A stretch of 13,608 nucleotides of DNA from Promethearchaeota archaeon (GCA_019894975.1 JAGXNO010000071.1:1-13608); one strand, 5' to 3'; positions 8,512-13,608 are shown, numbered from the stretch's first letter. Program-made: numbers and translations. Notes: a model not told the origin generated them from the sequence alone.

Positions 8512-9978
8512 TTAAATATATGCATGCATCAATTCAATTAGGTTTTTAGAGAAATCAGGAAGATTTTTCTCAATTTTATTAATTTGGGCCGACTTTTCGA
8601 TAAGCAGTAGCAGATACAAATTATATTTTTCAACTTGAATTTTTTTAAATACTATTTTTTTAGATTCATCAGCAATCCCAGAAGATACCAGAAAATCTTG
8701 TTTTAAAATCTTATATTCCTTAAAAGTTCGATACAACTCTTGGAAGTGAGGTGCCGAGATTTCAAAAACTTTCTGGGAAATTTCATCTTTTGAATAATTT
8801 GAAAGAATTATTCCATTCTCATTTAATAATAAAATTGCGTCTGAGTTAGTTTTTTTAGCAAACTTCTTTAATTGAGTCCTGAATAATTCGCGATTAGGAC
8901 TTAGTTGAGATAGCCCAAAGGAATATGCCGTGACGAGACTCCAATGATCAAAAATACTGGTTTGAAATATTTTGATTAAAAATCTATCAGAATTTTGTTC
9001 TATTTCATCAGCGATTATCTCTAAATTCTTGAAAATCTCTTTTGAGCCTTTTAAATCAGGATCAAATTTATTTAAGCAAATTACCATCGGAGGAAATTCA
9101 TCCAAATCGATTAAAGAAGTCACAATTTTTCTAAATAGTTCGAGAGCCTCTCCAATTCTCTCTACGTCTTGGATATCGATAAAAAAGAAGATTAAATCAA
9201 CATTATACAAGTAAATTTTGCTTTGCTCAAGAAATCTTTCTCGATACTGCTTCTGACCTCCTAGATCCCAAAGAGATATAACAGAATTTTGTTCTTCAAA
9301 AAGGTTTTCCTCAGTTCTGTCCACTCCTCTTGTTGGCAAAGATTTAATAATTTCAGAATACCTTCTTCTTATTCCCAACAAAAAACTTGATTTACCTGCT
9401 TTGTCTAAACCCGTTAATAATACTTTAATTTGCCTCCTTGTAGAAAAAGGATCTTTTAAATCCTTTGTGAATTCAAATAATTCACTTCTAACATTTTTCA
9501 TAATTTTTTCTTGATTATCAGATTCCTTATCTGCTTGTATCTGACTGGCTGCTTTATCAATTATTATTCTTAAATATTTCATATTTTCATAAAAAAATAC
9601 TCTGTCATCCTCGTTGATTAATACAGTAATAGTAGCCGCTAATGCTTGACCTCGAGCTGTTTCATCAGGGATGAGAAAGAAATATGTTAATCCATTCAAA
9701 CTTAAGTCAGGAAATGGTAAAATACCGAAATAATTGACTCCTGCATCTGAGCCTTGTGAATCTTGATAAACGGAATCACCCATAAGTAAACTGATAGTTT
9801 TCATCGCAATTAGAAGTCCCGCTTTTTCTTCTAGATCACTTGGCCATACAATTTTAGGGGTGGGACCTTTTTCATCAAAAATACTTAATACGATAGCTTT
9901 AATTAGATTTATATTATTATTATCTTCAATATCTCCATTTAAATGTTCCCTATTCGATTTAGAGTTGTTATCAGTCAC
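8512..9978 (-). CDS. Ras-superfamily GTPase (Arf/Rag-like) with N-terminal uDENN/longin-like domain and C-terminal roadblock-like domain
   Basis: G1 GLDKAGKS (9388-9411), G2 PTRG, G3 WDLGGQ (9253-9270), G4 NKFD, G5 TSI. N-terminal IVLSIFDEKGPTPKIVWP resembles the uDENN/longin F.....GP.....P opening. C-terminal NSDAILLLNENGIILSNY is roadblock-like. GTG start preceded by GGGGA. Confidence 0.88.
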   Translation of the reverse strand: MTDNNSKSNREHLNGDIEDNNNINLIKAIVLSIFDEKGPTPKIVWPSDLEEKAGLLIAMKTISLLMGDSVYQDSQGSDAGVNYFGILPFPDLSLNGLTYFFLIPDETARGQALAATITVLINEDDRVFFYENMKYLRIIIDKAASQIQADKESDNQEKIMKNVRSELFEFTKDLKDPFSTRRQIKVLLTGLDKAGKSSFLLGIRRRYSEIIKSLPTRGVDRTEENLFEEQNSVISLWDLGGQKQYRERFLEQSKIYLYNVDLIFFFIDIQDVERIGEALELFRKIVTSLIDLDEFPPMVICLNKFDPDLKGSKEIFKNLEIIADEIEQNSDRFLIKIFQTSIFDHWSLVTAYSFGLSQLSPNRELFRTQLKKFAKKTNSDAILLLNENGIILSNYSKDEISQKVFEISAPHFQELYRTFKEYKILKQDFLVSSGIADESKKIVFKKIQVEKYNLYLLLLIEKSAQINKIEKNLPDFSKNLIELMHAYI

Positions 9979-10146
9979 TTAATCCCCATTTATGTTGCTA
10001 TTAGTTAAAAGTTTTAAAATTGCCTTACTATATTCCTTAGATGATAATATAATAAAATCAAGATATTACTTTAATATACTCAAAATAATAATTACTATTA
10101 AATCATTACTTTTAGTTCCCAAGACTCAAAATAATTAAGTAGACAA

Positions 10147-11943
10147 TCAAGTGAACTTCAATCTTTCAAGTTTAGAAGGTATAAATCTTTCATTGATAAA
10201 ATCTACTAAATCATGATTATTTCTCTGAAGATCTTCTAAGGAAACATATTCTATTGCTCCATTTTGAATAAAGCCTTGAAGTTTTTCTTGTTTCTTAACT
10301 CTTTCTATAGGATCAATTTCAACATCTTCTCTAAAATGAAATGAATTAGTATAATAAGGATCTTCTCCATTGGACTGATGTAATGCAATTTTTGGAAAAT
10401 GTTTCATATCCAATCTCGCAAAACGATATACGGCTTTCTTTGTTATACTTTCACTTAAAAGAACTAGTAAATTGTTATTCTCACTAAATCTTTTACAGAT
10501 ACTATTCATATCATTTAAGATTTTTACTCCCAAATTAAGAGCATCATTATGTTCATGGAGCTCGGAATGTGTAAGAAATTTTACTGTTTCGTTTAATCCT
10601 ATAAAGCTAATTGAGAATATCTGATTTTTTAAGTTATAGAGAGGTTTATTATTGATAATTCCACTACATAAAGGCAAGTGATTAGACTTCAACCTTTTTT
10701 CTATTATTTTATATTTCTTTATTAAAATCTGATTAGAAAGTATTAATTTTTCATTCAATAACTCAAGAAATTTGGTTTCGTCCTTAGTAGTATATGCAAA
10801 TCGTGGAAGGTTCAGGCAAATTTCTTGAAGAATTCCTGAACTCTGATAATTATTTGACTTTAAATTTTTATCTTTAAGAGAAGAAGTGTCTGATTTTATT
10901 AAGATCGACGATTTCATTGAATTAATTTCTTCCCATACATTCCGATAAGCACTATTAAATTTGTTCAACCATGCTCTACTTACCATAATTTCATGAATTG
11001 GAGTTCTAAATGAATTTTTACCATCATCTCCGTCCTTAAAGGCGCTTACTAAGGCATTAAATAATGCTAAACATTCCTCTTGATATTCTCCATAATTTCC
11101 AATGGTTTTATCATGAAATCCTATAATAGGGACATCTGAAAATGATTCTAAGTTAGTAGGACCTGTTTGGATTGAACTTGAAGATACGGTACGACCCGTC
11201 ATAACCGATAAATGATTCAATTCATAAATCAAAGTCTTCATTAACCGTTTTAGTTCCGGAACACTGATTCCTCTTACGTAAGGAGATAAAAATAGAGTTA
11301 AGTAATTAAAACCTTGATTTCCACAGAATTCATTTTGAGTTAGTGCTAACCATCTAACAAGATGATGAATAGCCTCTTTTAAATTTAGAGCTGGCTTTAA
11401 TTTACAGCAAGAGATAAAATTTGGTATGGGAGGTAAACCATGGTCTAAAATTATACGAGAATCCCAAATTTGGGTTAAAGGTCTTAAATCAAAATACCTT
11501 AATTTATGAATATGGATGTCCCCATATAGATGAGCTTTTGATTCCTCGTTATTTAAAATTCTTAAATGAGCATATTCTTCAGATATACGATTAGCAGCCC
11601 AGGTATGGATCTTTTCAGGATTCATTATTCTTTTGGGATGTTTAAGCGACCCCTTTTCAAGAATCTCTTCGTAATCCATCAAAGGAATTCCGATTCGGGT
11701 ATATAATTTTCGCTCACTCTCAAAATGCTGCTCAGAAAGTATTGAGCACACTATTTCTCTAATGTGTGGCCCTGAAAGAAATCTTATCCCAGAGCTAATA
11801 ATTCTTCTTACCACAAGTTCAGTAATTTTATTTGCATTAGGTTCACTCATTCCCGTTTCTTTTAGAATACTATCAAGAATCCTCGAAGAGTCAAACTCTG
11901 CTAAATCTCCTTCAGTCCTAAATACTTTTGGGAGTAAGTCCAT
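10147..11943 (-). CDS. ATP-cone-containing class III ribonucleotide reductase (NrdD) homologue, apparently catalytically inactive
   Basis: ATP cone KVFRTEGDLAEFDSSRILDSILKETG...IREIV. NrdD landmarks AHLYGDIHIH, KPA, LNLPR, IGLNE and YYTNS are present. There is no active-site NC, finger-loop MGCR/CCR, C-terminal CxxC pairs or RxxGY. Confidence 0.85.
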   Translation of the reverse strand: MDLLPKVFRTEGDLAEFDSSRILDSILKETGMSEPNANKITELVVRRIISSGIRFLSGPHIREIVCSILSEQHFESERKLYTRIGIPLMDYEEILEKGSLKHPKRIMNPEKIHTWAANRISEEYAHLRILNNEESKAHLYGDIHIHKLRYFDLRPLTQIWDSRIILDHGLPPIPNFISCCKLKPALNLKEAIHHLVRWLALTQNEFCGNQGFNYLTLFLSPYVRGISVPELKRLMKTLIYELNHLSVMTGRTVSSSSIQTGPTNLESFSDVPIIGFHDKTIGNYGEYQEECLALFNALVSAFKDGDDGKNSFRTPIHEIMVSRAWLNKFNSAYRNVWEEINSMKSSILIKSDTSSLKDKNLKSNNYQSSGILQEICLNLPRFAYTTKDETKFLELLNEKLILSNQILIKKYKIIEKRLKSNHLPLCSGIINNKPLYNLKNQIFSISFIGLNETVKFLTHSELHEHNDALNLGVKILNDMNSICKRFSENNNLLVLLSESITKKAVYRFARLDMKHFPKIALHQSNGEDPYYTNSFHFREDVEIDPIERVKKQEKLQGFIQNGAIEYVSLEDLQRNNHDLVDFINERFIPSKLERLKFT

Positions 11944-12213: not shown

Positions 12214-13002
12214 ATGTTAAAACTATATTCAGAATCTTCTCTAAGATATTTTTTTACAGAGATTTACCAAATCTTAAGAGATACTGATCCTAAATTAACA
12301 GAAATTTGGTGTGAGATACCCAAAATCTCTTTTTTTGAGGGAATGAAAAAAACAGAATTAATTCACTTTATAGAAAATTTTAACTTTATTTCTTTGAGAA
12401 AAGGAAATTATATCTTTTATATTGTAATAGAGAAAATTCTGTTTATTATTGATTGTATTAAGTTCTTGAAATATGATATAGCCCATTTATCTGAAATATT
12501 GGATTATTCTGGTTTTGAAGCTCTAATTAATGAAATATTATCAAAAAATAACTATCATACAACCACTAACTTTAGATTCTCGGAAAATTCAGATTTGAAA
12601 TCGAGTAAATCTCAGAAAAGATATGAAATTGATGTTATTGGAATTTACTCAAACTACATCTTGATTATAGATGCGAAGCAGTGGAAGCGTAAGGATTCAT
12701 ATGGCACTATAAGTAAAGCAGCAAATTTACAATATGCCCGTGTTAAGGCGTTAAAACGAAATCCAGATTCTTTTTTAAAACTAATTTCACTACTTATTGG
12801 AGAGGATCCAAGTATAAAAAAGCGTTTACCTTTCACGCTTATCCCAATAATGGTGACTCTCGAAGATAATAGCACTAAATTAAATGAAAACCAGATACCG
12901 CTTGTTTCCATATATGAGTTTAATGCGTTTTTACAAGAATTATTATATAATTTACATTATTTTAAATCAGTTCAAATTGGAAAATTAGTTAGACAAAACT
13001 AA
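12214..13002 (+). CDS. Solitary PD-(D/E)xK nuclease-fold protein (Mrr/NERD-like)
   Basis: GFEALINEILSKNNY (Mrr-like FE helix), YEIDVIG and IIDAKQW form an E...D...DxK active-site set. Confidence 0.75.
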   Translation: MLKLYSESSLRYFFTEIYQILRDTDPKLTEIWCEIPKISFFEGMKKTELIHFIENFNFISLRKGNYIFYIVIEKILFIIDCIKFLKYDIAHLSEILDYSGFEALINEILSKNNYHTTTNFRFSENSDLKSSKSQKRYEIDVIGIYSNYILIIDAKQWKRKDSYGTISKAANLQYARVKALKRNPDSFLKLISLLIGEDPSIKKRLPFTLIPIMVTLEDNSTKLNENQIPLVSIYEFNAFLQELLYNLHYFKSVQIGKLVRQN

Positions 13003-13068: not shown

Positions 13069-13608
13069 TTACTGTTCTAAGCCCATGTAATATTTTATCT
13101 GTTTCTTTATGACATTAATAGCAATAGAAATAATACCACTTTTAACTTTAGGGTGAGAAAACATAATTAATATCATATCTTTTAAATTAGGGGATTCTGT
13201 ATCAATGGGTGCGAGATCTAATATCCCTTCACTTCCTTTAACGCTAATAGACTTTAGTGCTCCTGCGCTCAGGCCATGGAGGATATCAGCCCCGATCATT
13301 GAAAGATTCATACCAATTGTGCTAAATAATGATTCTGATATTCTGCTTGATATCGCTGAAGCTAGCATTGTTCCATCGGTCTTTATGATCGCTGAAGCCT
13401 CTATTCGAGAATCAAGAGTAATGAGCTCGTTTAAAATTTCATTCATACTTGCAGGTGGTATTTTCTTTTCTGGTCCCTCCTTAGGACGAGGAGAAGCAAC
13501 CTTTGAATCCAATTTCTTTACCGATATTTTTTTTGATAAAAAGCTTAACACTTCAGACATATCTTTTTCTAATCTTTTCTGTTTGAAGGAAGATTCCGTA
13601 TTCTCTGC
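13069..13608 (-). CDS. Protein with C-terminal roadblock/LC7 (MglB/LAMTOR-like) domain, probably 5'-truncated by the window
   Basis: MNEILNELITLDSRIEASAIIKTDGTMLASAI...GALKSISVKGSEG...KSGII is a typical roadblock pattern. The frame is open past ATG 13560 to the window end (AENTESSFKQKRLEKD-MSEV), followed by a Lys/Pro-rich linker. Confidence 0.85.
   Translation of the reverse strand, partial: AENTESSFKQKRLEKDMSEVLSFLSKKISVKKLDSKVASPRPKEGPEKKIPPASMNEILNELITLDSRIEASAIIKTDGTMLASAISSRISESLFSTIGMNLSMIGADILHGLSAGALKSISVKGSEGILDLAPIDTESPNLKDMILIMFSHPKVKSGIISIAINVIKKQIKYYMGLEQ

Follow-up and report, generated by a model that had tools for sequence, protein, structure and literature searches.

The window analyzed here is a whole contig of 13,608 nucleotides from a Promethearchaeota archaeon (GCA_019894975.1 JAGXNO010000071.1:1-13608). 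It encodes a short homolog of NrdD, the class III ribonucleotide reductase (RNR), that has lost its radical chemistry and is unable to act as a ribonucleotide reductase. The short NrdD is old, widespread in one Asgard family, and under purifying selection. This selection is centered on the N-terminal ATP-cone, the linker, and the N-terminal core (N-core). The short NrdDs appear to be an undescribed family of class III RNR pseudoenzymes. With moderate confidence, we regard the gene as a pseudoenzyme paralog of the lineage's class III RNR, retained for a noncatalytic job, most likely that of a nucleotide sensor or adaptor.

Identification of the gene

The 13.6-kb contig belongs to a 3.9-Mb Asgard metagenome-assembled genome (about 30% GC, 95% complete, 8.6% contamination). 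An initial annotation had reported an uninterrupted 598-codon open reading frame (ORF) at 10147-11943. This ORF was confirmed, and it lies on the minus strand. The protein matches the Pfam family NRDD (PF13597) with 230 bits, and the match covers only profile positions 8 to 492 of 562. Its TIGR02487 score of 230.3 bits is below the equivalog cutoff of 326.35, and it is far under the cutoffs of all other NCBIfam NrdD equivalogs. An AlphaFold2 (AF2) model made with 95 relatives had a mean predicted local distance difference test score (pLDDT) of 86.8 and a predicted template modeling score of 0.85. The model has an NrdD-like fold with cone topology. Its best Foldseek matches were the solved NrdDs 8p2c, 9d3x, 4coj, and 1h78 (probability, 1.0; template modeling scores, 0.64 to 0.75). 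These are class III reductases of P. copri, S. thermophilus, T. maritima, and phage T4. Family profile and fold both identify the protein as a homolog of NrdD, and the barrel recognized in the initial annotation is borne out.

The protein is 48% identical to P0002, the complete NrdD of the same genome. P0002 has 711 amino acids (aa) and is encoded on another contig. It contains the beta-1 Cys, a finger loop with a CC pair, the PAE motif, two CxxC pairs, and R-V-T-G-Y. The window contains no nrdG, as had been stated. An NrdG activase is encoded on another contig (168 bits against a cutoff of 131) and presumably serves the canonical NrdD. The second, complete nrdD and the nrdG that the initial annotation had proposed looking for are thus both present in the genome. 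Searches of the genome found neither a class I nor a class II RNR, and no NrdD-type radical domain outside the canonical gene.

Lost and retained elements

Landmarks came from the structure paper on P. copri NrdD (PMC11226230) and from alignments made with HMMER against solved structures. The alignment set contained P0002, 13 canonical NrdDs, and 112 relatives from the clade of short forms (the short clade). Every radical element is lost from the window protein and from all 112 clade members examined, and these elements are present in P0002. Coordinates are given in Table 1.

T157 of the window protein aligns with the beta-1 Cys (C180 in P0002, C125 in T. maritima, and C171 in P. copri). This column is Cys in every canonical sequence. 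In the short clade it is Ser, Thr, or Asn, with Ser or Thr in about 90%. The initial annotation had pointed to TQ in place of the Cys and to K in place of the D of HxHD. The first change stands. The second was rejected as a mark of inactivation, because the motif reads HIHK in the window protein and HIHM in the functional paralog P0002, so that K for D is not diagnostic.

The finger loop is missing, as first noticed. About 24 aa are deleted relative to P0002 and the canonical set, and the CC pair, including the thiyl Cys, is gone with them. No conserved Cys occurs in the loop remnant in any of the 112 clade members. The AF2 pLDDT is below 50 at residues 355 to 360 of the remnant. The segment that had been quoted as following the missing loop, GILQEICLNLPR, corresponds to aa 370 to 381.

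The elements that hold the substrate have also changed. The flap reads ENANQD in P0002 and is kept in 13/13 canonical sequences. It reads LKHPKR in the window protein and is variable across the short clade. In P. copri NrdD, Glu581 is the substrate-bridging Glu (PMC11226230). The TPAE-type motif had been described as altered, and SESITK does stand in its place. The Glu column is K, E, or N across the short clade. P. copri N298 and loop 2 were placed on the window protein by HMMER alignment and with PMC11226230. In the short clade, the conservation of E241 is at least 90%, N243 never varies, and the constraints on loop 2 are gone.

The window protein stops after the last barrel strand, at the LERLKFT end that had been noted. 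The Zn ribbon (CxxC...CxxC) and the R-V-T-G-Y glycyl-radical loop are absent from it. Still conserved in the short clade are HxH, N-L-P-R, E498, R507/F508, and Y-T-N-S-x-H. The protein is unable to reduce nucleotides, because the thiyl loop, the beta-1 Cys, the flap, and the Zn/glycyl-radical domain are all lost.

Phylogeny and selection

A protein search retrieved about 100 clusters of 590 to 625 aa with 50 to 92% identity, all ranked before the first full-length NrdD. They share the architecture and the truncation point of the window protein. Zn ribbon, glycyl loop, and loop cysteines are absent from all of the short-form clusters. The short forms are one clade (FastTree support, 100; IQ-TREE Shimodaira-Hasegawa approximate likelihood ratio test [SH-aLRT], 100). 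Its position is within the radiation of Asgard NrdDs, next to the canonical NrdDs from the same GTDB family.

The ratio of nonsynonymous to synonymous substitution rates (dN/dS) was calculated against the DNA of the closest ortholog. It was 0.22 for the whole gene, as low as 0.015 for the ATP-cone, about 0.28 for the barrel, and 0.65 for the loop remnant. The ratio below 1 that the initial annotation had asked about is thus found over the gene and most strongly in the cone. Columns were also compared between the 112 short and 13 canonical sequences. In residues 1 to 95, 57 columns are invariant in both groups and none was lost. The constraint in residues 109 to 172 is mostly common to short and canonical NrdDs. 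Constraint is gone from the flap, loop 2, the finger loop, the PAE loop, and the C terminus of the short clade. It is newly gained in three columns and switched in three, with no new invariant polar cluster.

Synonymous sites between the paralogous cones are saturated (proportion of synonymous differences, 0.74). The near-identical cones therefore reflect selection, and gene conversion was rejected as their cause. In the same genome pairs, canonical NrdDs are 82 to 88% identical and short forms 49 to 56% identical. The short form is evolving 3 to 4 times faster than the canonical enzyme.

No frame disruptions were found in the orthologs examined. A recent pseudogene or assembly error was rejected, since about 100 intact clusters have a common length and end and the dN/dS is 0.22. 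The initial annotation had allowed for full-length orthologs with this copy evolving neutrally; the orthologs are short and under purifying selection. The features of a pseudoenzyme are all present: the protein is an enzyme homolog, its essential residues are lost, it is under purifying selection, and it is kept across species.

ATP-cone

The cone had been called well formed. The AF2 secondary structure agrees with this, with strands at residues 6 to 8 and 14 to 16 and helices at 19 to 30, 34 to 51, 58 to 71, and 75 to 81. This is the topology of a beta-hairpin roof and four helices, and the best Foldseek matches are NrdD structures with ordered cones. The profile score does not agree, as the Pfam ATP-cone (PF03477) score is 18.7 bits and the gathering cutoff is 25.8. 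The cone of the canonical paralog is also below this cutoff, at 18.0 bits, and some short-clade members reach 25.3. The cone alone had no match in the PDB by phmmer. Invariant basic and aromatic cone residues in the clade are R46, R47, R62, R78, K79, Y81, and R83. A Pfam profile search found no Zn ribbon or other DNA-binding domain ahead of the cone in the window protein.

Repeated loss of radical chemistry

G138, G144, and G212 (99%, 98%, and 82% complete) each have just one strong NrdD match, a 624-aa protein in which the canonical N-terminal extension and the beta-1 Cys are still present and the finger loop and the radical domain are missing. The genes around it are in the same order as those at the canonical nrdD locus in the window's genome and in a sister genome, so the gene is a canonical nrdD truncated in place. 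PF02867 RNR and an above-cutoff NrdG were not found in these three genomes. The sister genomes G209 and G215 do have NrdG. The dN/dS of the three truncated genes is 0.16 to 0.24.

A quick IQ-TREE tree joins the three truncated genes (L028, L030, and L031) with the short clade (SH-aLRT, 96). A single origin of all truncated forms was set aside, as synteny puts these genes at the canonical nrdD locus. From synteny, we read them as an independent loss. An origin common with the short clade, followed by relocation, retains some probability. Radical loss in NrdD arose more than once, and dead NrdD bodies have been retained repeatedly, even without an RNR system. The organisms of the three genomes may be deoxynucleoside triphosphate (dNTP) auxotrophs or may have an undescribed route to deoxynucleotides.

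Further dead forms keep the Zn ribbon and have either a deletion of the loop or another residue at the radical Gly (P0108-type, P0095, L041, P0252, P0282, and P0379). Some dead NrdD forms bear two cones or an N-terminal winged helix. Radical-dead NrdDs in metagenomes include P0275, P0276, P0283, P0297, P0309, P0252, P0282, P0379, and P0387. Some of these have two cones and no radical domain, some have a Zn ribbon with the radical Gly changed to D, S, T, or A, and one is fused to a helix-turn-helix (HTH) domain. Because several further dead architectures occur in metagenomes, radical loss in NrdD homologs is a broader, repeated event.

A separate group of canonical nrdD frames is 1,200 to 1,700 aa long, with matches split into 2 to 4 stretches (G168:C45, G213:C21, G220:C111; P0244, P0251, and similar). 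These are probably intein-bearing genes.

Gene neighborhood

The next gene downstream encodes a GTPase (Pfam Gtr1_RagA, 85.6 bits; Arf, 61.7 bits; Folliculin, weak). The GTPase is strongly conserved, with 72 to 89% identity over 120 clusters. The short NrdD lies directly upstream of its ortholog in all 17 family genomes where the short gene was found. The same adjacency occurs in metagenome loci down to 51% identity, one of them with the other flank rearranged. The short gene never adjoins nrdD or nrdG. Dependence of the GTPase on the short NrdD was rejected, as a GTPase ortholog was found in 42/46 family genomes.

The spacer between the two genes contains a conserved block that aligns across loci whose short NrdDs are only 60 to 68% identical (flanking proteins, 60 to 85%). 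It occurs in G150 as well, beside a different adjoining gene. An Rfam search of the window, including this block, gave no match. Because the block precedes the GTPase gene even beside a different neighbor, the GTPase is probably transcribed from its own promoter. For the same reason, a strict operon of short NrdD and GTPase is not supported.

In eight genomes without the short gene, an intact stand-alone ORF of 135 to 170 aa, consisting essentially of cone and linker, adjoins the same GTPase. In four of the eight, all from genus g3, this mini-cone and the GTPase are codirectional. The mini-cone of G138 and G144 has an NrdD-type cone and is preceded by a remnant of a short-clade start, and that of G150 and G071 lies in divergent orientation. 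The GTPase is adjoined by three different kinds of cone carrier. No cone gene was found beside the GTPase in three genera (g2, g5, and g7). Mini-cones are widespread in the family, often beside the GTPase and also elsewhere, and the window's genome has one on contig C3.

Upstream of the short NrdD are a NERD-like gene and a gene for a roadblock-domain protein. The roadblock ORF has no Pfam match. Its AF2 model (pLDDT, 76) matches structures of Asgard roadblock proteins, MglB, and Ragulator LAMTOR2/3 with a probability of 1.0. Relatives of this ORF are 275 to 371 aa long. Related loci carry a 324-aa Arf/Rag-like GTPase adjoining the roadblock gene and a paralog of the window's GTPase (33 to 38% identical, about 500 aa) 8 to 20 kb away. 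The GTPases and the roadblock protein look like a Rag/Ragulator-like gene neighborhood.

Table 1. Features of the short NrdD gene, its neighbors, and stand-alone cone ORFs at other loci
Feature	Position	Strand	Remark
Radical-dead NrdD paralog, whole ORF	10147..11943	-	ATG start, 598 aa plus stop
ATP-cone and linker, aa 1-95	11659..11943	-	Most constrained part; dN/dS 0.015 against closest ortholog
Remnant of NxN substrate flap, aa 96-108, EKGSLKHPKRIMN	11620..11658	-	Role of flap: PMC11226230
HxH motif and beta-1 strand, GDIHIHKLRYFDLRPLTQ (aa 141-158)	11470..11523	-	Catalytic Cys replaced by T157
Specificity-site motif Y-E-x-N, then altered loop 2	11176..11229	-	Motif kept
Finger-loop remnant, aa 346-370	10834..10908	-	Cys-free, about 24 aa shorter than canonical
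N-L-P-R strand	10801..10812	-	Kept, invariant
SESITK (aa 497-502) replacing WEQPAE	10438..10455	-	Substrate-bridging Glu replaced by K502
C-terminal tail SKLERLKFT, last barrel strand	10150..10176	-	Family ending S-K-[LI]-x-x-[LV]-K-F
Conserved block of about 70 nt in 168-nt spacer	10046..10113	-	Probable promoter/leader of GTPase gene
GTPase, 488 aa, longin/folliculin-like N-domain and Gtr1/RagA-Arf G domain	8512..9978	-	Next gene downstream
NERD-like gene, 262 aa, divergent	12214..13002	+	Pfam NERD 24 bits; syntenic in most loci
Roadblock-domain protein, C-terminal part	13069..13560	-	ORF runs off contig end (window 13069-13608); syntenic
Stand-alone mini ATP-cone	L058:4477-4914	+	
Stand-alone mini ATP-cone	L056:3372-3815	-	
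Stand-alone mini ATP-cone	L060:1686-2183	-	
Stand-alone mini ATP-cone	L064:1349-1774	-	

Related genes elsewhere in the genome

A third NrdD-like gene, P0003, was found on another contig (L003:1459-3447, minus strand, equal to G000:C107). It encodes 662 aa with an N-terminal winged helix (DUF7347/HTH_45), an ATP-cone, and a very degenerate NrdD body. The body matches PF13597 with 54 bits over profile positions 283 to 500 only and is without the cysteines, the Zn ribbon, and the glycyl loop. Genes like P0003 are present in almost all genomes of the family. P0003 is a candidate NrdR-like nucleotide-responsive transcription factor.

The genome also contains a stand-alone 116-aa Gly_radical ORF of the pyruvate formate-lyase (PFL) type (G000:C17:3974-4261, minus strand; 112 bits). 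It resembles a GrcA-like spare-part protein. The genome further encodes five glycyl-radical enzymes that resemble PFL and are about 800 aa long.

Proposed function of the short NrdD and alternatives

The short NrdD would have arisen by duplication of the class III RNR gene within one Asgard (Lokiarchaeia-like) family. Gone from the duplicate are the thiyl loop, the beta-1 Cys, the substrate flap, and the entire Zn/glycyl-radical domain. Selection is centered on the N-terminal ATP-cone, together with the linker and the first helices of the core, and the barrel persists as a faster-evolving scaffold that still bears the Y-E-x-N specificity-site motif. In the most likely mechanism, the cone would bind ATP or dATP, and dNTPs may bind at the old dimer-interface site. 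The adenylate or deoxyadenylate status could thereby be turned into a conformational or oligomeric signal that a partner protein would read. Candidate partners are the neighboring longin/Rag-like GTPase-roadblock module, plausible because of its recurrent adjacency with three kinds of cone carrier, and the canonical NrdD, plausible because the cone and N-core surfaces are near identical.

A role in nucleotide sensing or regulation is consistent with the concentration of selection in the cone, linker, and N-core. The truncated 624-aa ORFs, which are under selection in genomes without NrdG or another RNR, give independent support for a dead NrdD having a use. The stand-alone cone ORFs beside the GTPase in genomes without the short gene support a function centered on the cone. 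The initial annotation had proposed repurposing as a sensor, scaffold, or regulator of a real NrdD. Selection on the cone supports repurposing. The part about a regulator of a real NrdD is somewhat weakened, because a dead NrdD persists under selection in genomes without NrdD or NrdG.

Several points weigh against a nucleotide sensor or adaptor. The cone is below the Pfam threshold, and one of the two basic residues in the usual K-R pair of the cone is Thr; for both reasons, nucleotide binding by the cone is an assumption. Ligand binding, oligomeric state, and partner of the window protein are all putative. Adjacency to the GTPase could be historical, because the GTPase also occurs without a cone gene (in g2, g5, and g7) and has its own upstream block. 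The barrel may be more than a passive scaffold, since its dN/dS is about 0.28 and HxH, NLPR, and YTNS-H are kept.

A less likely explanation is that the short form serves the real NrdD as a dedicated regulatory subunit. It could form a heterodimer through the conserved N-core and dimer helices, or co-oligomerize through the near-identical cones, and so tune the enzyme or confer dATP inhibition. Such a pair would be comparable to an active RNR subunit with an inactive partner subunit. Selection has kept the two paralogs almost identical in cone, linker, and N-core, and canonical NrdD accompanies the short form in 14 of the 17 genomes that carry it. ATP-cones also mediate dimer and tetramer contacts in solved NrdDs (PMC11226230). 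However, canonical NrdD was not found in G207, which is 96% complete and has the short form, and independently dead NrdDs are maintained in genomes without NrdD or NrdG. The short gene is never by nrdD or nrdG and always by the GTPase gene. Many family genomes run the canonical enzyme without the short form.

A wider proposal, rather unlikely in our estimation, is that ATP-cone carriers, namely the short NrdD or, in other genera, a mini-cone in the same genomic slot, would be the nucleotide or energy-status input of an Asgard Rag-like GTPase-longin-roadblock module. They would then be a prokaryotic forerunner of the eukaryotic pattern in which ex-enzyme sensors feed into Rag GTPases. In a related reading, NrdD in these archaea may have a second, radical-independent function. 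Such a function would explain why the NrdD body is kept in lineages without ribonucleotide reduction.

It is improbable that the short NrdD is still an enzyme with a new, nonradical nucleotide activity. Leftover active-site residues (HxH, N-L-P-R, E498, R507/F508, and Y-T-N-S-x-H) are conserved and the barrel is constrained, as such an activity would lead one to expect, but the substrate-holding flap, loop 2, the finger loop, and the PAE Glu are lost or variable. The few columns that gained or switched constraint form no new invariant polar cluster, and cone-only mini-proteins seem able to fill the same genomic place.

It is very improbable that the short NrdD is a functionless relic, whether a duplicate in slow decay or an artifact of assembly or annotation. 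The faster evolution of the short form and its loss or reduction in some genera would suit decay. More than 100 intact ortholog clusters of the same length and end, the low dN/dS of the gene (0.22) and its cone (0.015), the intact frames of the orthologs examined, and the age of the clade contradict it. Half of a split reductase is hardly credible and was rejected. The genome does have the stand-alone PFL-type ORF and several glycyl-radical enzymes, but its NrdD-type radical domain is found only inside the canonical gene. Neither shifted-register cysteines nor a separate NrdD glycyl-radical subunit was found, and the loop remnant contains no Cys that is conserved in the clade. A radical domain supplied in trans has nothing to oxidize, because the barrel has neither the thiyl Cys nor its loop.

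Comparison with known systems

The window protein is like canonical NrdD (P0002, T. maritima, P. copri, and T4) in its fold, N-terminal ATP-cone, HxH, Y-E-x-N, and N-L-P-R. It differs in being without both Cys sites, the NxN flap, the PAE Glu, the Zn ribbon, and the glycyl loop, and in its sub-equivalog score. Where databases name such proteins, NCBI uses "anaerobic ribonucleoside-triphosphate reductase" and JGI uses "ribonucleoside-triphosphate reductase." Full-text literature searches found no description of radical-dead NrdD homologs in Asgard archaea or elsewhere.

NrdR is a bacterial repressor of RNR genes with a Zn ribbon and an ATP-cone, and its cone is purely an ATP/dATP sensor. It resembles the short NrdD in having an ATP-cone in a noncatalytic protein. 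In NrdR the cone is joined to a DNA-binding Zn ribbon and there is no barrel, whereas the window protein has a whole barrel and no DNA-binding domain. P0003, with its winged HTH, cone, and dead NrdD body, is a closer analog of NrdR. Yeast Rnr4 is a catalytically dead class I beta paralog and an obligate heterodimer partner for cofactor assembly. Like the short NrdD, it is a dead RNR-subunit paralog kept by selection beside an active one. The window protein differs in deriving from a class III catalytic subunit, and its partner is only a candidate.

SAMTOR and Sestrin2 are ex-enzyme small-molecule sensors upstream of eukaryotic Rag GTPases. They share with the window protein an enzyme fold, putative ligand binding without catalysis, and a tie, here a genomic one, to a set of Rag-like GTPase, longin, and roadblock proteins. 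They differ in that the putative link here is one of gene adjacency, which may be historical. We know of no TORC1 (target of rapamycin complex 1) in Asgard archaea. The roles and inputs of the many Asgard Rag-like GTPases have been stated to be unknown (PMC10933270). The conserved pairing of a cone protein with a GTPase is a testable lead on the inputs of these GTPases.

Counting short NrdDs as enzymes would overstate the RNR content of Asgard genomes. It would also mask some near-complete genomes that are without any recognizable RNR. The short NrdD is a natural experiment that separates the function of the ATP-cone from catalysis.

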